Assembly (NCBI GenBank): GCA_019058315.1
Contig: JAHPZH010000009.1
Coordinates: 136,307 to 200,306, forward strand
Source: Candidatus Helarchaeota archaeon
Lineage (GTDB): Archaea > Asgardarchaeota > Lokiarchaeia > Helarchaeales > RDOG01
Length of the DNA stretch: 64,000 nt
Direction of reading: 5' to 3'
Shown piece by piece: positions 1,301 through 15,484 of this stretch (the first letter of the stretch is position 1; each line of letters starts with the position of its first letter). The notes beneath the pieces were generated by a model. That model saw nothing but the letters and a program-made list of their open reading frames with translations. It did no database searches and was not told where the DNA came from. Position numbers and translations under genes: made by a program.

Positions 1301-2113
1301 TTAGGGTAGGTATTGAAATAATTCTTTCGATTTTTCTAATGTAATCTCAACACATTTTATAATTTCGTCTTTAGTAAAAATACCTTCTCTACCTTTTTGT
1401 ATGCTACAAATATTTCCAGATTCATCTACTGTAATTGTAATGCGTGCATCCATTATGCGATCCTCTTGTTCATTTGGATCAACCAGCAATTTATCTCCTA
1501 TCTTTGCTATTGTAACTGAAACTGCTTTATTGGAAAATGGGAGGGATAACCAATCTGCTTTTTTGTATTGTTCACCTAAAACTTCCACTTTATTATCAAC
1601 AATCTCAGTCCTTGGCATTTTTGCAGAAAGTAAAGCTGCCACTCCTGCTAATGTTCCCGCATCAAACATATTTCCATCATAAGATAAAACATATAAATCA
1701 ATAAAAATGATAAAAACTTGTTCGCCAGGAATTAAGCATAATTTAGAATAATCTACTATTTCTGAATGACGAATTCCTCTGTCAACTACACGTGCAACCT
1801 CAACAGAATCTTCATTTGGTGGTCCTGGTTCGAATATAGGGGATGCAAGAGCTGTAAGCTCGGCATTAACAGTGATTACTCCCCTATCAGGAGTATCTGG
1901 AAATGGAGGTCCAAGTGAAATCTTTACACCTGCAATAATATCTGTATTTCCAATTTTAACACGTGCTGACCCCTCAGCTTTTAGTATTACATCTGTCTCT
2001 ACAGATATTTTTCGATAATCTAAAAAATTCCTTCCGTCTATTCTCTGATCCTTTTTTACTAGAGAATTTATATGAGATTTTTCAATTTCAGAAATAATTT
2101 TAAAAGATTCCAT
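1301..2113 (-). CDS. rrp42: Exosome complex component Rrp42
   Basis: RIDGR, AEGSARVKIGNT, PFPDTP, FEPGPP, ARVVDRGIR, DGNMFDA motifs. Confidence 0.96.
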   Translation of the reverse strand: MESFKIISEIEKSHINSLVKKDQRIDGRNFLDYRKISVETDVILKAEGSARVKIGNTDIIAGVKISLGPPFPDTPDRGVITVNAELTALASPIFEPGPPNEDSVEVARVVDRGIRHSEIVDYSKLCLIPGEQVFIIFIDLYVLSYDGNMFDAGTLAGVAALLSAKMPRTEIVDNKVEVLGEQYKKADWLSLPFSNKAVSVTIAKIGDKLLVDPNEQEDRIMDARITITVDESGNICSIQKGREGIFTKDEIIKCVEITLEKSKELFQYLP

Positions 2114-2927
2114 TATATATCCTCCTCCTTTGATATTTCAGTTTCAATTTCTTTATCAAGTTGACTATATTTTCCCTTTATCGTCTGAATTTGAATTTCA
2201 TTTAATTTTTCAATTCCTTTTTCAGCAATATCCAAGGCTTTACGCATTTCATCAAATGTTATTTGACCATCAAATTGCAAAAGTGTATATGATTTAGATC
2301 GTGGCATCATTGCAATTGGTAAATCTCCCAAACCTTCTTTATCTTCAACATCCGATAAATCTAGAACTAATGTGGGTGGATCAGGATTTGCAATTTTACC
2401 TACTGCTACACCACAAACAAGGTCGCGTAATGATATTCCAGCATCCGCTAGAGCTAAAGAAGCCGCAGTAACCGCAGCACAACGTGTACCACCATCTGCA
2501 CAAAGGACTTGGATAAAAACATCTATTATAGTTTTTGGATAATATTCAAGAAATATTGATGATTCCAAAGCTTGTCGTAAAATTAGCGAAAGTTCGACTT
2601 CCCTTCTAGATGGGGCAGGAGATTTTCTCTCATCTACTTTATTCCAAATTATTCACTCGGTATAATTTAAGCGAACGTAGCCATGCGATAAAGTACTCGC
2701 AAAACTGCCGCATCTTGACGGGCTAAATGACGAGGGTGAACTTCACGTGGTCCATAAACTGCGACCAAAATTTTATTCTTTCCCATATTTATTAAAGCAG
2801 AACCATCTGCTTTTGTTAATAATCCCATCTCCATTGAGACTGGTCTTAATTCATCATATTTCCTATTATCTGTTCTTATTCCATCCCTAATTAACCAATC
2901 AGCTGGGACTTGTTTAAAAAGTGCCAT
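2113..2927 (-). CDS. rrp41: Exosome catalytic subunit Rrp41, intron-containing: join(2927..2671, 2638..2113), about 260 aa after splicing
   Basis: The ORF-track pieces 2667..2936 and 2113..2568 are the two halves of an RNase PH fold (VYGPREVHPRH; DGGTRCA; GDLPIA). Removing 2639..2670 gives YRMATFA-VDERKSPAPSRREVELS in frame. GGTGA SD lies 6 nt before ATG 2927. Confidence 0.93.
2639..2670 (-). other. 32-nt bulge-helix-bulge intron in rrp41 mRNA
   Basis: Minus strand reads CUAC-GUUC-GC^U-UAAAUUAU-(9 nt)-AUAAUUUG-GAAU-AA^A-GUAG: outer helix, 4-bp central helix, two 3-nt bulges and an 8-bp intron stem. Confidence 0.9.
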
Positions 2928-2982
2928 AATTATCACCTTTTTATATATTTTTTTAATTCATATCTAAATTTCGATTTTCAAT

Positions 2983-3687
2983 TTACTTCTTCTTTTTTTC
3001 ATTCTCTATCAAAATTTTTACTCTATCTGTGAGGCCAGAAGTATGTGCCTCTCGTTCAATTTTCTTAATAATTTTAATCAATAATTGTTCATCTTCTAAG
3101 TTTTTTGTAGATATCCAAACCAAACCATTTTGTCCAACTACGATTTGGCTTTTTGTTGCTTCTTTAATTAAATTTATCATAGAACCCTTTCTTCCTATCA
3201 ATCTAGGTATTTTCGCAGAAGCAATTTTTATTACTTTTCCTCCGCGCAATTTACCATATCCTTTACCTCTTATTGATAGAACAGGATCTCTTGTTCTGTT
3301 AAATGCTATTATCTCCCCCACAATAATTTGTCCGATATCAAAATAATTTTTGATATTATCTTTTAAAGGATTAAATGCTCGGTCTATTACATTTGTAACA
3401 TGTAAGGAAGCTGTATATGGAGAATCAATATCAACTTTCCAGCTAACGATGGATGTATTTATAATTTTTCCTATAACAACATCACCGACCTTAGGTACAT
3501 AAGGTCCACTGAAGGGAACTACATATACATTATTATTTCCTCTAATCTCTGAAAACCCAATAATAGATGCATAAAGTTTATCCTCTTCCTTGTATGTTCC
3601 AAATCCTGCTCTATACTTAGAACCTTCTACAATTAATTCGCCTGGCACTACAATACGATGCCGTTCAAAACTATCTCCATTTGACAA
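2983..3687 (-). CDS. rrp4: Exosome RNA-binding cap protein Rrp4
   Basis: IVVPGE, YVPKVGDVVIGKI (S1), KIPRLIGRKGSMI (KH), REAHTSGLTDRV. Confidence 0.96.
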   Translation of the reverse strand: MSNGDSFERHRIVVPGELIVEGSKYRAGFGTYKEEDKLYASIIGFSEIRGNNNVYVVPFSGPYVPKVGDVVIGKIINTSIVSWKVDIDSPYTASLHVTNVIDRAFNPLKDNIKNYFDIGQIIVGEIIAFNRTRDPVLSIRGKGYGKLRGGKVIKIASAKIPRLIGRKGSMINLIKEATKSQIVVGQNGLVWISTKNLEDEQLLIKIIKKIEREAHTSGLTDRVKILIENEKKKK

Positions 3688-3715
3688 AAAAAGTCCTCCT
3701 TTATTTTTAAAACTG

Positions 3716-4450
3716 TTAAAAGAGTGTTTCCTTTAATTTCTTAATATCATGTTTACCTTTTGTTAAATTTTTAAGTTGGTCATTTAATTCAGCATGGACA
3801 CCAACAGGAAGGTCAATTAATGCTATCCATGATCCATCAGATTGCCATTCATCTTTAGAAATTGTACCATACTTTGAAACAATGCCATAAGCTTTTCCTG
3901 TATATTGAGCTGGAATTTTTACAGCAAGAGTAATTCGTTCCATTTTAATAGGGATAATTTCTGCTAATTTCTTCACAATTTTCTTTGCTTGCTCAACAAT
4001 TTCCTCATTGGAATCTATAGATATTTTTGCATCTTCCATTGCACGTTCAATGCGAGCTGGTGGATGTGGAAGCCCAGTTTTGGGATTTACACAATTACGA
4101 TTGATAAAATAAATAATTTTTTTTCTAATTTTCTCCGTAAATTCTTTTCTCATTTCAGCTGTAATGTGCAGTTCTCCATTTTTTAAAATCTCTTCTGAAA
4201 TTTCAAAAATGTCATCAGTTTCAAATATTTTCTGAAATAACTCCGAATCTGTCAATTTTTCACCGCGTAAAGCGTCTGAAAAAATGTAATATCCAATTAA
4301 AATATCACGTATTTCAATATCCTTTCCTTCTTTGAATTGCCAAGCTAGCTTCGGATCTACTAAGATCTCAAAATGATGTCCCATACTATCATAACGAACT
4401 ATGGTTGCTTTTCCAAGATCTAGTCTTTTCTGTCCCCTTATAGAAACCAT
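3716..4450 (-). CDS. sdo1: Ribosome maturation protein SBDS/Sdo1
   Basis: HFEILVDP, NPKTGLPHPPARIERAM, EWQSDGSW. Confidence 0.95.
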   Translation of the reverse strand: MVSIRGQKRLDLGKATIVRYDSMGHHFEILVDPKLAWQFKEGKDIEIRDILIGYYIFSDALRGEKLTDSELFQKIFETDDIFEISEEILKNGELHITAEMRKEFTEKIRKKIIYFINRNCVNPKTGLPHPPARIERAMEDAKISIDSNEEIVEQAKKIVKKLAEIIPIKMERITLAVKIPAQYTGKAYGIVSKYGTISKDEWQSDGSWIALIDLPVGVHAELNDQLKNLTKGKHDIKKLKETLF

Positions 4451-4467
4451 ATTTATCTGATCTACTT

Positions 4468-5181
4468 CTAAATCCTTTGTATATATTTATCCAATTCCTC
4501 GGTAGCTAATCTTTCGAATTCCTTAGTTTCAGTACGTGCTATTGCCACTTCTACCTTAGTTGAATCAAGTTCAGTTTCGATTACTTGTTTTAATGCTTTA
4601 AGAGCTAACTCAATTGCTTGATCTAATGTCATTTCAGGCTTATATTCTTTTTCGAGTTCTTCTTGTACTGTCTGAGCACCAGAGCCAATAGCATTGGCAC
4701 GATAGCCCCAAAATGCCCCTGATGGATCAGTTAAAAATAATTGAGGCCCTTTTTCATCAATTCCAGCAATTAATAGACTTACACCGAAAGGGCGAACTCC
4801 TGCATGTTGCGTATATAATTGTTTTAGATCACATATCTTTTTTGTTAGCATTTGAATATCAATTGACTCATCATAAGTGAGTTTATTTATTTGACATTGA
4901 ATTCTAGCATGATCTACTAGAACTCTTGCATCAGCTGTCAAACCAGCTATAGCACAGCCAACATGATTATCAATTTTAAAAATCTTTTCTACACTTTCAG
5001 GTTCCTGAAGTGCAAGAATTCTTTTTTCTACTGTACAAACAACACCTTCAGAACATAAAATGCCAATTGCAGTAGTACCCTTTCTAACTGCTTCCATGGC
5101 ATATTCTACTTGAAAGAGTCTTCCATCTGGACTAAAGATCGTGATTGCACGGTCATAGCCCATACCTGGTGGCGCGAACAT
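4468..5181 (-). CDS. psmA: Proteasome alpha subunit (probable start MFAPPGMGYDR)
   Basis: YDRAITIFSPDGRLFQVEYA, GLTADAR, RPFGVSLL; GTAGGTG SD-like sequence before the internal ATG. Confidence 0.97.
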   Translation of the reverse strand: MFAPPGMGYDRAITIFSPDGRLFQVEYAMEAVRKGTTAIGILCSEGVVCTVEKRILALQEPESVEKIFKIDNHVGCAIAGLTADARVLVDHARIQCQINKLTYDESIDIQMLTKKICDLKQLYTQHAGVRPFGVSLLIAGIDEKGPQLFLTDPSGAFWGYRANAIGSGAQTVQEELEKEYKPEMTLDQAIELALKALKQVIETELDSTKVEVAIARTETKEFERLATEELDKYIQRI

Positions 5182-5546
5182 AATGCATAAACACCTACCT
5201 TTTCTTAAATTAACCAATTCTTTATTTCAAAGTTAAATATATTTTCATAAGAAATTATAGTTTATTTTTTTTACTCTTTTGTATAAATTTATTTCTTTTA
5301 TTTACACAAGATTTTCTTATACAAAAATGTTTTTTTCCTTTATTTATATTCATAATTGTTATTTTAAAAAAAAATAAATTTTTTTTCCTTAAATTTTTTG
5401 GTGAATTTATTAAAAAAGAATTAAAATTTCTTTAATTAAATATAACCGAACTAAATTTCAACATAGAACCGTTTAAAAAACACATATACTTAAAATTCTA
5501 ACGATTTTTTAAATAAATTTTGATTTAAAACCTTCTATCATAGATT

Positions 5547-6056
5547 TTAACTTTGTACAGCGTATAAATATAGAATAGTTATTATACAACCCAAAATTGT
5601 AAAAACACTCATAACAGCAGAACCTGAAGCAAATGCATAAATCAAGGTTAATAAACCAGTTCCAATAATAAAGATAATCATTGATAATAAACCAGCTGTA
5701 TGCCTTCTGTATTCTAACAAATTAGCAAATCCTATGAATATGAATGCGAAAAATAGTGATAACAGAAAAGCAGTAAAAATATCAGCTAATGTAATAATTC
5801 CCAATTTCACTGACCATAAACTTCTGATAAAAATAAGAATACCGTCACTACCAAAAAAATACTCACCAAAGGGATTTTTAAACGGATTCTGAAATTCCAA
5901 AGTCATTGGGATATAAATAATGAAATAAATAAGAAGAATAACTAAGGATATAAAAAGACATAGATAAAACGAAAAAAGCATTTTTTGTCGGATTTCGGCT
6001 CTTCTTAATCTTTCTTTTTTAGTTATAACTCTTTTTGACATTAAAAAAAAATCCAA
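5547..6056 (-). CDS. Hypothetical membrane protein (about 4 TM)
   Basis: Basic N-terminus followed by hydrophobic segments. Confidence 0.6.
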   Translation of the reverse strand: MDFFLMSKRVITKKERLRRAEIRQKMLFSFYLCLFISLVILLIYFIIYIPMTLEFQNPFKNPFGEYFFGSDGILIFIRSLWSVKLGIITLADIFTAFLLSLFFAFIFIGFANLLEYRRHTAGLLSMIIFIIGTGLLTLIYAFASGSAVMSVFTILGCIITILYLYAVQS

Positions 6057-6124
6057 TAATACTTTTTTTTAAATAGGAAGTAAATAAATAATAAAAATTT
6101 GGTAAAGATATTTATTTTTAATCG

Positions 6125-6571
6125 GTGAAAATGTCTTCTGAAATCCACGTAATTACAATTAGAGATTCTGATTTAGACAAATTAGTAGAATTTACAAAAA
6201 AAACTTACCCATACGAGTCATGTGCATTATTTATAGGGAATATAAATGGTCATAAAGCAACAGTAGACGAAATTTTATTTGCTGAAAATATTGATTACTC
6301 TCATGTTAGCTTTTCAATTAACCCTGAATTTCTATATCAAGTTTATATGAAAGCAGAAAAAGAAAATAAGGTGATTACAGGTATATTTCATTCCCATCCG
6401 ACTGTCTCTGCTCCTTCGTCAGTTGATTTGAAATATATGGAATATAATCCAGTAGCATGGATTATTTTAGGTGTTTTGGATGAAACTAATATAAAAAAGG
6501 AAGATATGCGAGCTTATCAATACTGGGAAAATTCAATAAAAGAAGTAAAAATAGAAATTATGAACATTTGA
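6125..6571 (+). CDS. JAMM/MPN+ (Mov34) metalloprotease
   Basis: PYESCALFIG...IFHSHP....PSSVD JAMM motif. Confidence 0.88.
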   Translation: MKMSSEIHVITIRDSDLDKLVEFTKKTYPYESCALFIGNINGHKATVDEILFAENIDYSHVSFSINPEFLYQVYMKAEKENKVITGIFHSHPTVSAPSSVDLKYMEYNPVAWIILGVLDETNIKKEDMRAYQYWENSIKEVKIEIMNI

Positions 6572-6696
6572 ATTAGGTATATAATTTATTGAAATATTAG
6601 TGCTTAATTTACATTTTTGCTTTAAAACAAAAATATATTAACAATAAATCAACATTAAAGAATAGTATTTTAAAAAGTATAAGAAAGTGAAATTGA

Positions 6697-7404
6697 ATGG
6701 GTAACACTGAACTCTTAGTAGTATTATATATGTTATTGACTCGACCAAGGGGTTTTCCATTATTCGATTACTTTGCTGATAATGCAGCTGGGATGTTAGC
6801 ATTAGGAGGTCTCTTTGCTGGATTTTGGTTTATTGATTGGATAATTAGGCACCCCGAAGCTGAGGAAGAAAGACCTGCATATTTAGTAGCTATTGATATC
6901 ATCGGGTTTTTTATTGGAATCATCTGTTTAGGCAGTGGGATCACTTTATTGTTGAATGGACAAGATCCAATAACTGAAGCTATCGGTGGATTTATAGGGG
7001 GTAAACATGATATTTTTACGAAGGGTCTGATTATAGCAGTCGGTTTATGTTTATTCTTAAAACCAATTAAAGATATTCCTTGGGCAAGTTTGATTGCAAT
7101 GATCGCTGGCGCTGTAGTTGTTTTTCTTGCAATAACTTATCTTGAAACTACCTTTACACAGCTTGCTGGACTTTTAGGTATTGATGTAAAACTTCTTTAT
7201 GGTATCATTTTCGTATTAGTATATGGTATTATATTCAGTATGTTCGGTTTAGCTCAATATATTCTACGTATAGTAGCTACAATATTAAGTTCAAGACCAG
7301 GTTCATTTGTTTTATTTGTATTATGCATGATTCAAGCATTATTGATTATCTTGCCACCCCATCCAGACGCTTATAGTCTTGCTCCACTCTTTGGATTAAC
7401 CTAA
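6697..7404 (+). CDS. Hypothetical multi-pass membrane protein
   Basis: About 6-7 hydrophobic helices. Confidence 0.7.
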   Translation: MGNTELLVVLYMLLTRPRGFPLFDYFADNAAGMLALGGLFAGFWFIDWIIRHPEAEEERPAYLVAIDIIGFFIGIICLGSGITLLLNGQDPITEAIGGFIGGKHDIFTKGLIIAVGLCLFLKPIKDIPWASLIAMIAGAVVVFLAITYLETTFTQLAGLLGIDVKLLYGIIFVLVYGIIFSMFGLAQYILRIVATILSSRPGSFVLFVLCMIQALLIILPPHPDAYSLAPLFGLT

Positions 7405-8046
7405 TCTACCTTTTAATTTTATTTTTGTTAAATACTGATAAGTCAGTGTTTGGCTAGGTGATTTTAAAAAAAGAAAAAGATCTTTAGGTAAATCAATATC
7501 TAATCCAAAATTTTTAGAATTATGTATTATTAAATTGTGATTTTTTACATTACGAGCTTTCTCAATATGTTTTTGAAAACTATTTTCACCATATTCAATT
7601 TTAATTATGTCAGAAGGCATTAGAAATAAAAGATTAGTACCATTCTTTCTTAAAGATGGAGATATTATAATTGTAGGTGGGTTGATTTCATAATTAAATA
7701 TCTCATCAATATCGTTTGAGGTTATAAGTGGAATATCTCCAGGAATTATTAAAACTGAATTTGCATTTTTTTTGATTGCAAATTCTATAGCAGAATTTAT
7801 TGATTCATTTATATTTGTTTCCATTTGCTCGCTTATTATATCTCCAAATTGAGAACCAATATCTAATATCATTGGATCAGAAGAGATTGTAACAATTTTA
7901 TTGGTTTTTTGAGTTGCACTTGCTGCCTGTATTACATCTTTAAACATATTGATACATAGTTTTTTTCTCTGTTCAGAGTTTAAAATGGAATTTAGTCTTA
8001 ACTTTGCGAATTCTAGAGATTTAACCGGGATAATTATAAAATTCAT
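7396..8046 (-). CDS. cofC: 2-phospho-L-lactate/PEP guanylyltransferase CofC
   Basis: IIPVKSLEFAKLRL, IPGDIPL, NGTN, LDIDLPKDL. Confidence 0.92.
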   Translation of the reverse strand: MNFIIIPVKSLEFAKLRLNSILNSEQRKKLCINMFKDVIQAASATQKTNKIVTISSDPMILDIGSQFGDIISEQMETNINESINSAIEFAIKKNANSVLIIPGDIPLITSNDIDEIFNYEINPPTIIISPSLRKNGTNLLFLMPSDIIKIEYGENSFQKHIEKARNVKNHNLIIHNSKNFGLDIDLPKDLFLFLKSPSQTLTYQYLTKIKLKGRLG

Positions 8047-8997
8047 TCATCCCACATTTAATTTCATCGCATCTAATGTAATTTGTGCTAAGTTTTTCTT
8101 AATTTCTAAATTCTTCATTAAAGTATTAGTAATTATTACTTTAATTCCTAATTTTTCAATTTCACTTTTTCTATCTTTATCAATTTCATCAATAACAAAT
8201 GTCTTAATCAAGTTTTTATAGAATTTTGCTACGCCAAAACAAGAAACTTCCATTCCTAAACCCTTCATGAGCCTATCAAGAGGTCCTTTTACTGGTTTAT
8301 TTCCTATTATTGGACTTATTCCAATAATTGGTTTATCAATTTGTTCTAAAGCCAATTTAATTTCCTTAATGGATAAAATAGTATTTATACTCACAAGTGG
8401 ATTACTAGGACCTATTAATATCCCTTCAGCATTCTTAATTATATCCAATATCCCATTTGTAGGTTTAGCATCTTCAGCTCCCTCATAAATAATTTCTAAA
8501 ACTTTATCTTGTGCTTTTCTCTCAATCATATATTCTTCAAAATGAATAATACCATCTGGAGTTCTAATTTTGGTCATGACCTTTTGATTAGTCATTGGAA
8601 TTAAATTTACTTCAACTCCAAGATGTTGACATAATTTTTTAGTAATTTCAGAAAGTTTTAACCCCGATTTTAATAAATTAGTTCTATAAATATGCGTTGC
8701 TAAATCTTTATCTCCCAGTTTAAACCATGTATCTTGTTTATACCTACTTAGCATTTCTAGGCAATTTGTAGTATCATTATCTATTCCCCAACCTTGCATT
8801 TTATCTACAATTCCAGAAAGAGTATACATAATTATATCTAAATCTGGTGAGATTGAAAGACCATATAGCTCAAAGTCATCAGCTGTATTTACTATAACGT
8901 ATAAATCTTTTGGGTTCACTATTTGAACCAATCCTTGGAGAAATCTTGCCGCACCTACTCCACCGGCTAAAACTACAATCAAACAGATTGCCCCCAT
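8047..8997 (-). CDS. cofD: 2-phospho-L-lactate transferase CofD
   Basis: LAGGVGAARF, VNTADD, ISPDLD, LGDKDLATH, GPSNP..SI. Confidence 0.95.
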   Translation of the reverse strand: MGAICLIVVLAGGVGAARFLQGLVQIVNPKDLYVIVNTADDFELYGLSISPDLDIIMYTLSGIVDKMQGWGIDNDTTNCLEMLSRYKQDTWFKLGDKDLATHIYRTNLLKSGLKLSEITKKLCQHLGVEVNLIPMTNQKVMTKIRTPDGIIHFEEYMIERKAQDKVLEIIYEGAEDAKPTNGILDIIKNAEGILIGPSNPLVSINTILSIKEIKLALEQIDKPIIGISPIIGNKPVKGPLDRLMKGLGMEVSCFGVAKFYKNLIKTFVIDEIDKDRKSEIEKLGIKVIITNTLMKNLEIKKNLAQITLDAMKLNVG

Positions 8998-9668
8998 TTA
9001 TTTTTAAAAGTAATTTTTTTAATTTCTATCCTTGAAGGCGGTGAAGGGGTTTCATCTGGATAACCAACTGTTATAAAAGCTTGAGGATCATGGTCTTTAG
9101 GTATACCCAATACTTTACGAACTATATCCTGACAAAATAATGGAGCACAATACCAACAGCACCCAAAACCATTTGTATAACTGACTAAGAGAAAATTTTG
9201 TATTGCTGCACTTACACTTTGGATTGCCATAATATATTCTGCATTTTGTCTTTTTTTATCAGGATATTTATGCATTCTTTCCATTGATAGACATGGGATT
9301 AAGATAATTGGTGCTGCTGTAAATTTTCTGATTGATTCTTCAATAATATCTTTTCTAGATGGCTCTGCAATTTGATCTTTTTCTAGATCGTTCTCATATT
9401 CTTCTGCCATTTTTTTAACTAATTCAGATTTTACTTGAGGATCTTCGATAATTAAAAAATAATATGGCATTGCATTATGTGCTGAAGGTGCCCAAATAGA
9501 AAATTCTAGAATTTCTACTATTTTAGAAATATCAATTGGGTTTTTTTTATATTTTCTAATACTTCTTCTTAATTTTATTACATCTTTTATATCCAATATT
9601 AAAAACCCCAATAGTAAAAGGTCATTAAACTTGAATAAAAAAAAATTTTTAAAAATATTTAACGTCAA
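8979..9668 (-). CDS. FMN nitroreductase-family protein resembling the FbiB C-terminal domain (true start probably a little downstream)
   Basis: RRSIRKY, WAPSAHN, AAIQNFLL, CWYCAPLFC; overlaps the cofD start. Confidence 0.8.
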   Translation of the reverse strand: MTLNIFKNFFLFKFNDLLLLGFLILDIKDVIKLRRSIRKYKKNPIDISKIVEILEFSIWAPSAHNAMPYYFLIIEDPQVKSELVKKMAEEYENDLEKDQIAEPSRKDIIEESIRKFTAAPIILIPCLSMERMHKYPDKKRQNAEYIMAIQSVSAAIQNFLLVSYTNGFGCCWYCAPLFCQDIVRKVLGIPKDHDPQAFITVGYPDETPSPPSRIEIKKITFKNKWGQSV

Positions 9669-9773
9669 AAATCCAAATTTTCAATAATCTGATTTAAAAA
9701 ATGAGTAAAAAAGCATATTTTATTATTTAATTCCCCTATTTTATTAAATTTAAATCAATTTAGATCAAAATTA

Positions 9774-9843
9774 GGGATCAAATCGTCGCAGAGCTCATCA
9801 TCAGTGTTGGATTTTTTCAGCTTGGGGCGACGATATCATTTCC
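9774..9843 (-). ncRNA. Candidate C/D-box-like (double K-turn) sRNA
   Basis: GGA-AAUGAUA...CUGA...UGAUGA...UUGA-UCC; GC-richer island in AT-rich spacer; TTTAAA about 20-25 nt upstream. Confidence 0.55.
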
Positions 9844-10000
9844 GAGTTATATTTTATTATCTTTAAATTTAAAAATTACGTAATTACGCGCTATAAATAA
9901 AAAAACTCTGAAATGCAAAAAAAGAATTTTGCAAAAAACATTTAAAATCATATTAATTGGGAAATATAAATTAAAAATGAAAAGTCCAGAGGTAAGTTTT

Positions 10001-11094
10001 ATGGTAAAGACTGGAATAATATATCATGAAGATTATTTAAAACATGATACTGGAGATCATGTTGAAAATAAAAAAAGATTGATTGCCACTTTGGATTTAT
10101 TTAATGAATACAAAATTTTTGAGCATCCTAATATCATTAAGATTTCCCCAAATCCAGCATCTATTAAGGAAATTCAAAGAGTTCATAAAGCATTTTATAT
10201 AGAAAAAGTCCGGGAAAAATGTTTAAGTGGTGGGGGCTGGCTTGATGCTGATACAATTGTCTCTCCAGATAGCTACAATGTTGCATTATTAGCTGCTGGA
10301 GGAGCAATACAAGCAGGTGAGATGGCTGTAAAAGGTAAAATTGACAATGCTTTTTGTTTAATACGTCCTCCAGGACATCATGCCGGACCAGGGGTTGCTA
10401 GAGGATTTTGTGTATTTAATAATATTGCCATTGTTGCAAAATCTTTAATTGCGAGGTTTGAAGAGGTCAATAAAGTCTTAATATTTGACCACGATGCACA
10501 TTAAAAAAGAAATTTTCTTTTTTAAGCATATACGCAGGTAATGGAACCTCGCAAATTCTATATAACGATCCAAATGTGCTATTATTTGATTTTCACCAAC
10601 ATCCGCGAACACTCTATCCTGGAACAGGTTATATAGATGAAATAGGTGAGGAAGAAGGAAAGGGATATAATATAAATTTACCTATGGTTCCCCGTGCTGG
10701 TGATGCTCAATATCTAGAAGTTATTGATGAATTATTCATTCCAATTATTAATCAATTTAAACCTGATATTGTTCTAGTTTCAGCAGGATTTGATACTCAT
10801 TTTTCTGATCCCATTACACAACTCAATATAACAATTCAAGGATATGGAGAAATCGTTAAAAAAATAAAAAAAGAGGCAAAAAAAGTCTGTGCTGGGAAAA
10901 TTATAATTATGCTTGAGGGTGGATATGATTTAAAAGCACTATCTCAGGGAATTCTAACTGAAATATCTGTACTTGGAGATTTAGGTATTGAATTTATAGA
11001 AAATCCTCCTAAAATTGAAGAAGCTATAGTAGATTACAATAGAAAAATGATAGATAAATTAAAAGAAGTTTTAGGTGCTTATTGGAAATTTTAA
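10001..11094 (+). CDS. Histone deacetylase-family (class II-like/AcuC) Zn-dependent deacetylase, intron-containing: join(10001..10499, 10532..11094), about 353 aa
   Basis: HVEN..RL, RPPGHHA, GFCVFNN, DHDAH|AGNGT, HQHPRTLYPGTG, SAGFDTH, LEGGY. ORF-track pieces 9929..10504 and 10576..11094 join in frame when 10500..10531 is removed. Confidence 0.92.
10500..10531 (+). other. 32-nt bulge-helix-bulge intron in deacetylase mRNA
   Basis: CG-AUGC-AC^A-UUAAAAAAGAA-auu-UUCUUUUUUAA-GCAU-AU^A-CG: perfect 4-bp central helix, two 3-nt bulges, 10-11-bp intron stem, short outer helix. Confidence 0.9.
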
Positions 11095-11132
11095 ATAATT
11101 GAGAAATATAGACTTTGGAGAATTTTAAATAA

Positions 11133-12761
11133 ATGTTTGAAATTATTGGGAGAGATGGTGCGGGGAGGTTAGGAAAATTAAAAACTGCTCATGGGACTAT
11201 TTATACACCTGAATTTATGCCAGTATACAATCATAATCATCCGACAGTTCCAATTGATGATTTTGAAAAAATGAATGTTAATATTTTAATTACAAATGCC
11301 TATATAATAAACCGAACTCCCGAATTAAAAGAGATTGCTGAGAAAGGAATTCATAAATTAATAGATTTCAATAAAATAATTATGACAGATTCTGGAGCTT
11401 ATCAAGCATGGATGTATCAAAAAGAGCTTGAAATTACAAATAAAGAAATTATCAATTTTCAAGATAAACTTCAACCAGACATTGCAACAATTTTAGATTT
11501 TTTTACAGAAACCAATTCATATTCTATTGCGAAAGAAGGTGTAGAAAAAACTATTAAAAATGCAAAAGAATGTATAAAAATTAGAAAAAAGGATTCAAAG
11601 ATTCTTTGGGCTGCACCAATTCAAGGAGGTCAGTTTCTAGATTTATTGGGGTATTGTGCAGAAGAATTATCTAAACTTGATTTTGATTTTCACCCCTTAG
11701 GAACACTCGCACCCGCACTACTTAATTATAATTTTAAAAAAGTAGCTGAAACAATTGCAGTAACAAAAAAGTATTTAATTCCATCAAGACCATTACATGC
11801 ATTTTCAATTGGACATCCGATCTTTTTTTCATTAGCAGTAGCTCTAGGAGCTGATTTATTTGATTCTTCTTCCTATGCTTTATTCGCAAAAGAAAATAGA
11901 TACTTAACAGTAAATGGTACTTTAAGACTCGAAAATATAATATCAGAATTTCCTTGTTCTTGTCCAATTTGTTTAAAATTTACTCCGGAAGAGTTAAAAA
12001 GTAAAGAAAAATTAGAAAAGGAAAAATTGTTAGCTAAACATAATTTATATGTGTGTTTAGAGGAGATGAAACGAATCAGATTTGCTATTAGGGAAGGTAA
12101 GTTATGGGACTTAATTCAAATAAGAATTCAGTCCCATCCTAGATTAGCAGAAGCTTATTATCATGTAATTAACAAATATAAAGAGCTCCTAGAACGCTTC
12201 GAGCCATTAACCAAACATTCTGCGATTTTCATTACAGATTCAAGTTCTTTAAACCGTCCAGAAGTATTTCGCTACCAAGAAAACTTAAAAAAATATTATC
12301 AAGTCCCAAAAAGTGTAAAATATTTAATTCTATTGCCAGATTTAAGGAATATTTTATTCTATAATAAGAAATTTCAGAATATTCAAAATACAATCAACGA
12401 AATTACTGAAAAAAATAGACCATATTTTCAAATATGTCTAATATCACCCGTATTTGGAATTATTCCAGAAGAATTAAAAGAAATATATCCCCTATCGCAA
12501 TTTGTTTATTCTCAAATAATCAATATGGATTTCATTATCCATAATCAACAAATTATTGAACAATTTATTACTCGTCATAAGAAAAATTATGAAGAAATAG
12601 TATTATACAGACCAAAAGAATTATTCATGGAAGATATAAATAAATCTTTACTGAGTAACCTTACAATAAATAAAATATCTACCGAAATTAAGGTAGCTAT
12701 TGTAAATGATGAAGTTCAACTATATGAAAAAATTAAAAAATTAAATCAAAATAAATTTTAG
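11133..12761 (+). CDS. tgtA: Archaeosine tRNA-guanine(15) transglycosylase
   Basis: DGAGRLG, TP.FMPV, MTDSGAYQ, GADLFDSSSY, CSCPIC...HNL zinc site. Confidence 0.93.
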   Translation: MFEIIGRDGAGRLGKLKTAHGTIYTPEFMPVYNHNHPTVPIDDFEKMNVNILITNAYIINRTPELKEIAEKGIHKLIDFNKIIMTDSGAYQAWMYQKELEITNKEIINFQDKLQPDIATILDFFTETNSYSIAKEGVEKTIKNAKECIKIRKKDSKILWAAPIQGGQFLDLLGYCAEELSKLDFDFHPLGTLAPALLNYNFKKVAETIAVTKKYLIPSRPLHAFSIGHPIFFSLAVALGADLFDSSSYALFAKENRYLTVNGTLRLENIISEFPCSCPICLKFTPEELKSKEKLEKEKLLAKHNLYVCLEEMKRIRFAIREGKLWDLIQIRIQSHPRLAEAYYHVINKYKELLERFEPLTKHSAIFITDSSSLNRPEVFRYQENLKKYYQVPKSVKYLILLPDLRNILFYNKKFQNIQNTINEITEKNRPYFQICLISPVFGIIPEELKEIYPLSQFVYSQIINMDFIIHNQQIIEQFITRHKKNYEEIVLYRPKELFMEDINKSLLSNLTINKISTEIKVAIVNDEVQLYEKIKKLNQNKF

Positions 12762-12785
12762 AAAATAGAAAATGGAGTAATTGAA

Positions 12786-13232
12786 ATGAGTCAGACGGCT
12801 GAAAGCCGATTTTTTAAAGAAATGGCAGGTTTATTAAACGCTAAAGTAAAAGTTATTACTTCAGATAAAATCTATGAAGGTACGTTATTAGGATGGGATC
12901 GGAAAAGTATGAGTGTCTGTTTAGGTTCTGCCGAAGATGATGAAGGGCGTGAATATCCTAAAATAATTATATATGGCAATACGATTTTGGAACTAATCGA
13001 GACAGGTAGGGCTTTTGACTTAAAAGCACTATCAGAAGATCTGGCAAAATTGTTTCCAAAAGGTGAAGTTCAATATAGCCCTGAAGCTCGTGTAATAATG
13101 GTTCTTAATAAAATCAAAGTAACCGAATTTGGTGTAGAAGGATCCGGTCCTTTAGCTGAAAGAATACGTAATGTTTATGAGAGATTTCTTGAAGAACACG
13201 AAAGTGAAGTTGAAATAGAAGAAGAAGTATGA
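12786..13232 (+). CDS. Sm-like (Lsm) protein with C-terminal extension (SmAP3 type)
   Basis: Sm1/Sm2-like N-terminus (YEGTLLGWD...SVCL, IIIYGN) plus Lsm_C-like tail ([17 protein letters not shown]); adjacent to tgtA. Confidence 0.85.
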
Positions 13233-13248
13233 AATCATAAAGGAATTT

Positions 13249-14931
13249 ATGATGTCTAGACTAACCGGTAAACCTGTCCTCATCTTAAAAGAAGGAAGCA
13301 AGAGAATTTCAGAACAGGATGCACTTAGGGTAAATATTTCTGCTGCCAGAACACTGGCTAATGCAGTTAAAAGTACTTTGGGGCCTAAAGGAATGGATAA
13401 AATGTTAGTTGATAGACTTGGTGGAATTATTATTACAAATGACGGAGCTACGATATTAGAAGAAATGGATGTTCAACATCCTGCAGCAAAAATGATGGTA
13501 GAAATAGCAAGAGCTCAAGATGACGAGGTAGGGGATGGGACAACAACAGCTGTAATTATTGCCGGAGAACTTCTTCGACGTGCTGAATTCTTATTAGATT
13601 TAAAATTACATCCTACAACAATAATTAGAGGATTTAAAAAAGGGCTGGAAAAAGTAAAAGAAATTCTTGAATCTCTCTCAATTAATGTCGATATTGATAA
13701 AGATACACAAATTTTAAAACAAGCTGCCATGACATCCTTAAATAGCAAATCTATCTCTGGAGTTAAAGAATTATTTGCTGATATTTGTTTCAATGCGGCA
13801 AATCAAGTAAAAGAATTACGATCTAATAAGAATTTTGTAGATATAGAAAGAATTCAAATCATAAAAAGACAAGGAAAAAGCTTATCGGATTCAAAATTAA
13901 TAGATGGAATTATTATTGAGGATCAAATTGTCCATCCTTTAATGCCTAAAAAGATTGAAGACGCTAGAATATGTATACTAGACTTACCTCTTGAACTTGA
14001 AAAAACAAAATTTGACGCCGAATTAAGATTCACTGACCCATTAGAAATGAAAAAATATCATATCGAAGAAGAAGAGATATTGAAACACTATGTTCAAAAA
14101 ATTAAAGAATCAAATGCAAACGTTGTTTTTTCAAAAAAAGGTATTAATGATATTTCTCAACATTATTTGGTATCAAATAATATAATTGGTATTAGGCGAA
14201 TCAAAAAGAAAGCAATGGAAAAATTAGCGAAGGCAACTGGTGCTAGAATAGTCTCAAATATTGAAGATCTAACTGAAGATGATATTGGACAGGCTAGGAT
14301 AGTTGAAGAGCAATTAATCGGAAATAAAAAGATAATCTTTATTAAAGGTTGTAAAAATCCAAAAGCTGTTTCTATCCTCTTAAGAGGGGGTGTCGATAAT
14401 CTTCTAGACGAAGCCGAAAGAGCTCTAAATGATGCTCTTTGTGTTGTTAGGGATATTTTATTTGAAAATAAAATAGTAATTGGTGGAGGAGCAATAGAAG
14501 TAGAGATTGCAAAATTGCTTAGAGAATTTGCTTCTTCAATAGGAGATAAAGAACAATTGACTATAGAAATTCTAGCTGACAGTATAGAAATGATTCCAAA
14601 AATATTAGCACAAAATGCCGGTTTTGATCCTATTGATAAAATTTTACAACTTAGGTCAATCCATAGCCAAGAAAATAATAAATATTATGGAATTAATGTT
14701 TTTAATGGTAAAATTGAAGATATGAAAGAAAATGGAGTTATTGAACCATATTCTGTTAAAATGCAAGAAATAAAATCTGCCGTTGAAGCAGCTTCAATGA
14801 TTCTAAGAATTGATGATGTAGTGGCTGCTAAATTAATTTCCCCAGAAGCTAAGGCAGGAATGCCAACGGGACCATTATCTGGAATGGGTGGAATGCCACC
14901 TGGAATGGGCGGAATGCCGCCAGGTATTTAA
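13249..14931 (+). CDS. ths: Thermosome (group II chaperonin) subunit
   Basis: [36 protein letters not shown]-rich tail. Confidence 0.96.
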
Positions 14932-14967
14932 AAAAATTCTTTATATAGAATAGCTCCGGTAGTGTAG

Positions 14968-14997
14968 ACGCAAATTAACGAAAATCTTGCGACAAAA
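14968..14997 (+). other. tRNA intron 1 (30 nt, position 15/16)
   Basis: GUGU-AG^A-CGCAA...UUGCG-ACAA-AA^U relaxed BHB (one mismatch in central helix). Confidence 0.82.
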
Positions 14998-15022
14998 TCC
15001 GGTCAAGCATAAAGGGCTCTCG

Positions 15023-15050
15023 TTTATACGTAATTTTACTATAAAAAGAA
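15023..15050 (+). other. tRNA intron 2 (28 nt, canonical position 37/38)
   Basis: AAGGG-CUCU-CG^U-UUAUA...UAUAA-AAAG-AA^A-CCCUU relaxed BHB. Confidence 0.86.
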
Positions 15051-15058
15051 ACCCTTCG

Positions 15059-15083
15059 GCTGCTAATTTATTAGCAGGAGGAA
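15059..15083 (+). other. tRNA intron 3 (25 nt, variable loop, position 45/46)
   Basis: CCUU-CG^G-CUGCUAA-uuua-UUAGCAG-GAGG-AA^A. Confidence 0.85.
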
Positions 15084-15484
15084 ACCCGGGTCCGAATCCC
15101 GGCCGGAGCACCAATTTTTAATTTCTAATGATTTTATTTCTTGATTTATGATCAAATCTAATTTGGTATTATTGAAAAACTATATTTAGTTAAGGCGCGT
15201 ATTGGAAAATAGAGTTAAAAAATTTTATGATTATACTAAAATGAAATTTAGCTTTAATTTGATAATATTTATAAATTATTTTTAGTTCTACTACAAAAGA
15301 AAAATAGAAAATGTTATTAGAGGAAATACGATTTTTAATGAATATTATTTCTAATAATTCAATTTACTCAAATATAAAGAGATGATGCTCAAATTAAATT
15401 AATTTGTGCTAATATTTTTTGATAATGTCTTATCTGAATTATTGAGAGTTAAAAATTTTTTCCCATATAAGAGGATATGCTAAA

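Follow-up and report, generated by a model that had tools for sequence, protein, structure and literature searches.

Interrupted genes in a Helarchaeales-like contig

The window analysed here is a stretch of 64,000 nucleotides (contig C10:136307-200306; the prefix C denotes contigs of this genome) from a metagenome-assembled archaeal draft genome of 5.79 Mb in 12 contigs (30 % GC; completeness 94 %, estimated contamination 6.6 %). Two protein genes of the window, the exosome gene rrp41 and the gene of an HDAC-family deacetylase, are each interrupted by an insert of 32 nt with the geometry of a bulge-helix-bulge (BHB) intron, and three further inserts lie in a tRNA-Glu(CUC) gene (Table 1). The nearest public rrp41 locus belongs to a Candidatus Helarchaeota metagenome-assembled genome (66 % amino-acid identity). 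The label "Asgard-like", which an earlier reading of the window (the original prediction) had given to the host, is therefore right, and the host can be described as Helarchaeales-like.

In rrp41, the RNase_PH domain is divided between two open reading frames (ORFs): domain positions 1-60 are encoded in 2667-2936, positions 86-129 and the C-terminal domain in 2113-2568. Exon 1 is open from a GTG at 2936, with an ATG at 2927, and ends after the second base of an alanine codon. Cuts are predicted between bases 2 and 3 of each 3-nt bulge, and at both protein genes such cuts remove exactly 32 nt. On the minus strand, the rrp41 site reads CUAC GUUC GC^U, followed by an 8-bp hairpin and GAAU AA^A GUAG (^ marks the cut); helix h is thus CUAC/GUAG, helix H is GUUC/GAAU, and the bulges are GC^U and AA^A. 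Within the intron, a UAA stands one base in, in the frame of exon 1, and a UGA in the frame of exon 2. The Rrp41 sequence joined at these cuts aligns gap-free to intact orthologues and carries the motif YRMATFAVDERK; its junction region, YRMATFAVDERKSPAPSRREVELS, has the same residues across the joint as that of the nearest relative (YRMSTFAVDERKSPAPSRREVELS). Flags of "1 TAA inside" for rrp41 in three relatives were traced to the natural stop codon and do not represent interruptions.

In the deacetylase gene, positions 1-152 of the Hist_deacetyl domain are encoded in 9929-10504 (likely start ATG at 9977 or 10001) and positions 168-295 in 10576-11094. The site consists of CG AUGC AC^A, an 11-bp hairpin, and GCAU AU^A CG; its outer helix h is weak and relaxed (CG/CG, two mismatches, then ACC/GGU). 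The joint splits, after the first base, the codon of the histidine in the D-x-H metal-binding motif, a Zn ligand. The junction region of the product, DHDAHAGNGTS, is the same in the three nearest orthologues, and the joined frames again align gap-free. The residues spanning the predicted joints of the two products are …MATFAVDER… and …DHDAHAGNGTSQ….

All five inserts had been announced in the original prediction and are present where it placed them. Sequence comparison agrees with it that the two mRNA inserts are both 32 nt long and unrelated in sequence, and the gap-free orthologue alignments bear out that a cut after the second bulge base restores both the frame and a conserved motif. Its UAA one base into each intron applies to rrp41; in the deacetylase gene, the BHB-defined cut puts the UAA two bases in, the one-base version being an equivalent slide with the same product. 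The BHB geometry that it ascribed to all five inserts is exact in the two protein genes and relaxed in the three tRNA introns.

Table 1. Positions of the interrupted genes, their inserts and the splicing enzymes. Positions without a contig prefix are those of the window; a slash in a protein motif marks the joint.
Feature	Position	Strand	Size and structure	Basis or remark
rrp41 exon 1	2671..2936	-		Pfam RNase_PH 1-60; upstream half of gap-free orthologue alignment
rrp41 intron	2639..2670	-	32 nt, phase 2	BHB geometry; alignment; without indel in independent contigs
rrp41 complete hBHBh' motif	2634..2680	-	h 4 bp, H 4 bp, two 3-nt bulges, h' 8 bp, 9-nt loop	
rrp41 exon 2	2113..2638	-	stop codon overlaps rrp42 start	Pfam RNase_PH 86-129 and RNase_PH_C; alignment
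HDAC exon 1	9929..10499	+		Pfam Hist_deacetyl 1-152; orthologue alignment
HDAC intron	10500..10531	+	32 nt, phase 1, in-frame UAA 10502-10504	geometry, alignment, independent contigs
HDAC BHB motif	10492..10534	+	H AUGC/GCAU, bulges ACA and AUA, h' 11 bp, 3-nt loop	
HDAC exon 2	10532..11094	+		Pfam Hist_deacetyl 168-295; alignment
tRNA-Glu(CUC) gene, encoded CCA	14953..15113	+	161 nt genomic, 78 nt mature	ARAGORN after removing three inserts
tRNA intron 1, D-loop	14968..14997	+	30 nt; BHB poor, H 3/4, no outer helix	read by hand
tRNA intron 2, canonical 37/38	15023..15050	+	28 nt; anticodon stem = h (5 bp), h' 5 bp	read by hand
tRNA intron 3, variable region	15059..15083	+	25 nt; HBh' type, no outer helix	read by hand
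EndA alpha	C12:5149-5703			both EndA domains
Second EndA paralogue	C1:331411-332016			without catalytic His
RtcB	C5:272272-273576			one copy
EF-2 paralogue			31-nt insert	DTPGH/VD; Pfam GTP_EFTU 2-79 and 82-160
RNase Z			29-nt insert	FDCGE/GTQ
HAD hydrolase			29-nt insert	DLDGT/I
HTH_3-CBS protein			33-nt insert	Pfam on both halves
PAC2 protein			26-nt insert	found by genome scan

Chance, artefact, decay and recoding

At both protein genes, a 4-bp helix with a 3-nt bulge at each end, the two bulges on opposite strands, forms part of one continuous helix stack and is flanked by helices h and h' (in relaxed form in the deacetylase gene), and the cut between the second and third bulge residues gives the exon junction expected from the orthologues. 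The chance of such structures was estimated at 3,000,000 genome positions picked at random, with the insert length set to 32 nt: a BHB of rrp41 grade occurred four times and one of HDAC grade once. The insert boundaries are set independently by the protein alignments; a coincidence at both sites is therefore not credible. No further copies of either intron were found in the genome. In the deacetylase gene, the minimum-energy fold contains H, the bulge and h' (z = -3.3).

A metagenome-assembled draft in 12 contigs, with 6.6 % estimated contamination, could in principle hold inserts produced by assembly or sequencing, a failure that the original prediction had itself envisaged. Both inserts were recovered, at the same places, from independently assembled contigs of other samples and another study: two sediment metagenomes (Logan contigs, runs X2 and X3) contain a strain about 96-97 % identical whose contigs span both. 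The rrp41 site is free of indels in both runs, as is the HDAC site in run X3; run X2 has a 2-nt deletion at about 10516, in a T-run at the hairpin tip, which spares helix H, the two bulges and 9 bp of h' (sequence read by hand). No exon of either gene carries a frame-breaking indel in these contigs, and the source run has the whole stretch in one contig of 52.8 kb with even depth. The probability of an artefact is thus close to nil. The HDAC intron of the related strain, with its deletion within 10513-10517, is 30 nt long, a multiple of three, and the in-frame UAA is still present.

A second alternative is that both genes are pseudogenes, hit by unrelated 32-bp insertions whose BHB shape is coincidental. 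Without splicing, both genes do terminate at a stop codon, the rrp41 insert is missing in all 40 related species and in 146 further homologous loci from other archaea, where the site is intact, and splicing is inferred, no RNA run being listed for this DNA. Against decay, a BHB of this grade at a fixed register is expected by chance at roughly one position in a million, but both inserts and five more split genes (see below) have one. The exons of both genes are open and conserved, catalytic residues included, over 95-205 codons in a genome of 30 % GC, and the diverged strain keeps the exon frames and alters the hairpin tip only. Moreover, rrp41 is a single-copy gene, and the adjoining rrp4 and rrp42, whose products need Rrp41, are both intact according to Pfam, which counts against its decay. 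Intact paralogues beside decaying copies, the other failure considered in the original prediction, were not found: a search of the 94 % complete genome gave no second intact rrp41 (next-best match E 1e-5), and the sole HDAC paralogue is 40 % identical and represents another subfamily, which relatives carry besides the orthologue. Decay of the two genes is accordingly regarded as improbable.

It is also conceivable that ribosomes bypass the insert or shift frame across it, or that the two halves act as separate polypeptides. As in gene 60 of phage T4, a stop codon directly after the last exon-1 codon is followed by a hairpin, and in the deacetylase gene no stop codon interrupts the exon-2 frame as far back as about 10487, which makes a single shift formally possible. 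Gene 60-type bypass is contradicted at both sites, since neither offers, in the frame required, a landing codon identical to the take-off codon. In rrp41, the UAA of the exon-1 frame precedes the UGA of the exon-2 frame, and therefore no single shift connects the frames; in the deacetylase gene, a shift would abolish the DHDAH motif and add 11 residues. As to separate halves, the downstream rrp41 ORF has no start codon until 23 codons beyond the joint, and the conserved segment VDERKSPAPSRREVELS would be lost. Recoding or split polypeptides are considered very unlikely, more so than decay.

Several observations weigh against reading the inserts as spliced introns. By nearest-neighbour calculation for naked RNA at 37 °C, the minimum free energy is 2.3-2.5 kcal/mol lower than the energy of the exact BHB, whose ensemble probability in a context of 152 nt is about 1e-3 to 1e-2; for rrp41, the BHB is not the minimum-energy fold. 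The outer helix of the HDAC motif has just 2 bp before its mismatches. None of the sequencing runs listed as holding this DNA contains RNA, so that splicing, ligation and intron circles are inferred. A scan of metagenome contigs yielded no relative of intermediate distance with the introns (best identity 64 %), and hence no covariation test. As the genome is 94 % complete, its missing part could conceivably hold an intact copy.

Splicing enzymes, tRNA introns and further split genes

The enzymes on which the original prediction relied, a splicing endonuclease and an RtcB-type ligase, are both encoded by the host. For EndA alpha, the match to the catalytic subunit of the heterotetrameric enzyme of Aeropyrum pernix has E 4e-45 and is ungapped in the region of the specificity loop; the Tyr/His/Lys catalytic residues are present (sequence read by eye). 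Asgard EndA has been described as an (alpha-beta)2 enzyme with an L1 loop that gives broad specificity (PMC5829648). From the sequences of the two paralogues, the host EndA is predicted to be of this (alpha-beta)2, broad-specificity type.

The tRNA-Glu(CUC) gene was missed by ARAGORN and Rfam in the unedited window, and the strict BHB scan recovered none of its three introns. Read by hand, intron 2 pairs at three of the four H positions (one C.A mismatch), and intron 3 has H CCUU/GAGG and an h' of 7-8 bp; both have two 3-nt bulges. More than half of the about 24 tRNA loci found in the host genome by a crude acceptor/T-arm search appear to exceed 90 nt. In several runs, Logan contigs stop or diverge right at the 3' end of the tRNA-Glu gene, and the short segment 15084-15118 has a very high summed depth; downstream of it, the sequence differs in the related strain. 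The segment is possibly a repeat that other tRNA genes share, or else a hot spot of integration. Outside the window, C3:627504-631783 holds a dense one-strand array of about 20 tRNA genes, several with introns, which includes most of the tRNAs of the genome that ARAGORN can find; it may derive from a mobile element or virus.

Five more genes of the genome have the same split architecture, confirmed by Pfam on both halves: those of an EF-2 paralogue, RNase Z, a HAD hydrolase, an HTH_3-CBS protein and a PAC2 protein. In all seven introns, a stop codon in frame is reached by the third codon, and the 3' bulge follows the pattern A[A/U]^N. The suggestion of the original prediction that this lineage may splice many mRNAs holds in so far as these five genes were added; the genome contains at least seven mRNA introns, with a total of the order of ten and not of hundreds. 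The BHB-first scan, in which removal of the insert must merge two ORFs, has a very high chance background at 30 % GC. Genome-wide, the counts for the real 3/3-bulge geometry nearly equal those for decoy geometries, with little excess; the scan therefore cannot support "many" and gives no evidence of hundreds of introns. Among its candidates, McrG/Fer4, DsrH/GcvH and M50/TtuA turned out to be gene boundaries, and COesterase, Fer4, an ABC protein and P-loop genes were ordinary genes with an open off-frame. Unconfirmed candidates are located at C11:748086, C1:310420 and C5:487069, together with a 16-nt Cys/His insert at C6:38360.

The introns of rrp41, the deacetylase gene and RNase Z are each absent from 40 related species. 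RNase Z was found at threshold in 20 of the 40 species representatives, with the match in a full-length open frame, and all nine of the relatives' loci that were inspected are uninterrupted at the insert site. Because the three genes are uninterrupted in relatives, their introns are considered recent and lineage-specific. Six introns from the uniform scan are clustered beyond chance (two gaps of 17 kb or less, P ~0.003), a value to which verification via conserved families may contribute. Two of the verified mRNA introns share an 8-kb stretch of C10, and a 49-kb stretch of C6 holds four candidates; the majority are located at codons of catalytic motifs.

Positions 1301-5217 comprise the archaeal exosome/proteasome superoperon (rrp42, rrp41, rrp4, SBDS and proteasome alpha). 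After it come genes of F420 biosynthesis, the HDAC-family gene, and the genes of archaeosine TGT, an Lsm protein, a thermosome subunit and rpoA1. The Sm-like protein encoded at 12786-13232, between archaeosine TGT and the thermosome subunit, has Lsm_C as the sole Pfam domain detected. Two observations concern C5, outside the window. A complete gene of the methyl-coenzyme M reductase gamma subunit (Pfam MCR_gamma 23-246) lies at C5:381959-382680; it is presumably consistent with the alkyl-CoM reductase metabolism described for Helarchaeota. On the minus strand of C5, at about 1,000,000-1,033,300, open frames of about 9,700-11,100 codons suggest a giant gene that exceeds 30 kb.

Interpretation and comparison with known systems

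Taken together, it can be held with considerable confidence that the two 32-nt inserts are genuine archaeal BHB introns inside coding sequence, spliced by EndA and RtcB, gained recently, and members of a set of at least seven. To judge from the sequences, the rrp41 and deacetylase mRNAs very probably need to be cut and rejoined by the tRNA-splicing enzymes. In the proposed mechanism, the pre-mRNA would fold locally into hBHBh', the (alpha-beta)2 EndA would cut each 3-nt bulge between bases 2 and 3, and RtcB would join the exons and probably circularise the intron. The joined mRNA would give full-length Rrp41 and deacetylase, while translation of unspliced RNA would terminate at the UAA near the intron start. 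The three inserts in the nearby tRNA-Glu(CUC) would be excised by the same machinery. The introns would be recent gains of this genus-level lineage and part of the at least seven mRNA introns of the genome.

At present, annotation treats such Asgard genes as split or as pseudogenes, and here they include essential RNA-processing enzymes. Their recognition as intron-containing genes would widen the expected substrates of Asgard EndA and RtcB from tRNA to mRNA, and would make recent intron gain accessible to study in the prokaryotic lineage closest to eukaryotes. A more far-reaching idea, offered tentatively and thought rather doubtful as it stands, is that tRNA-type micro-introns are actively spreading from tRNA into protein genes, with a preference for catalytic-motif codons and local clusters, so that core enzymes have become dependent on EndA and RtcB and are possibly gated by them. 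If so, the exosome, RNase Z, the EF-2 paralogue and the deacetylase would all depend on EndA/RtcB, and the genome would represent a natural invasion of mRNAs by introns in the archaeal group nearest to eukaryotes.

In the splicing of XBP1 and HAC1 mRNA, which is regulated by stress, IRE1 cuts and RtcB (in metazoans) or Trl1 ligates. The introns described here resemble this system in being short and frame-changing, in their presumed use of a protein endonuclease and a tRNA ligase, and in that production of the protein would depend on splicing. They differ from it in the cleavage sites: IRE1 sites lie in the 7-nt loops of twin stem-loops, a structure that was found at neither gene, whereas the sites here are 3-nt bulges around a 4-bp helix.

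The closest known case is the BHB intron in the cbf5 pre-mRNA of Crenarchaeota, reportedly described by Watanabe in 2002 and Yoshinari in 2006. This intron interrupts the catalytic Asp codon, and the cut falls between bulge residues 2 and 3 (PMC2738675, Yokobori 2009). Shared with cbf5 are a BHB intron in coding sequence, the predicted cut between the second and third bulge residues, a hetero-oligomeric EndA and the misannotation of the gene as split or frameshifted; in addition, the HDAC intron likewise falls behind the first base of a catalytic residue's codon. Unlike the cbf5 intron, those described here reside in rrp41, the deacetylase gene and at least five others, in several genes per genome and in an Asgard archaeon. 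They are uniformly tiny (26-33 nt) and lineage-specific, not ancestral to two orders, and their splicing is predicted from DNA and not read from cDNA. Neither intron occupies the catalytic Asp codon of cbf5, the position inherited within Desulfurococcales and Sulfolobales. The rrp41 and HDAC introns would thus have the working mode of the cbf5 intron, and they belong to a different intron lineage.

Multiple non-canonical introns have been reported in Asgard tRNAs, namely in tRNA genes of Atabeyarchaeia and Freyarchaeia (PMC11291895; bioRxiv 10.64898/2026.10.13.758758). Those introns and the ones described here are alike in being short AT-rich hairpins of BHB or relaxed BHB form, several per tRNA gene, against the permissive background of an (alpha-beta)2 EndA; in contrast to the present Helarchaeales-like host, these two studies report no introns in protein genes. 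An mRNA of Haloferax volcanii, HVO_1309, carries a BHB intron in its 5' untranslated region and is a substrate of the splicing endonuclease in vivo and in vitro (PMC7714728). It is an mRNA substrate, as those of rrp41 and the deacetylase gene are predicted to be, whereas its intron lies in the untranslated leader and leaves the reading frame uninterrupted. The same study of 2020 named cbf5 as the sole example besides its own case (PMC7714728), and in the literature searched, EndA splicing inside archaeal coding sequence is documented for cbf5 alone.

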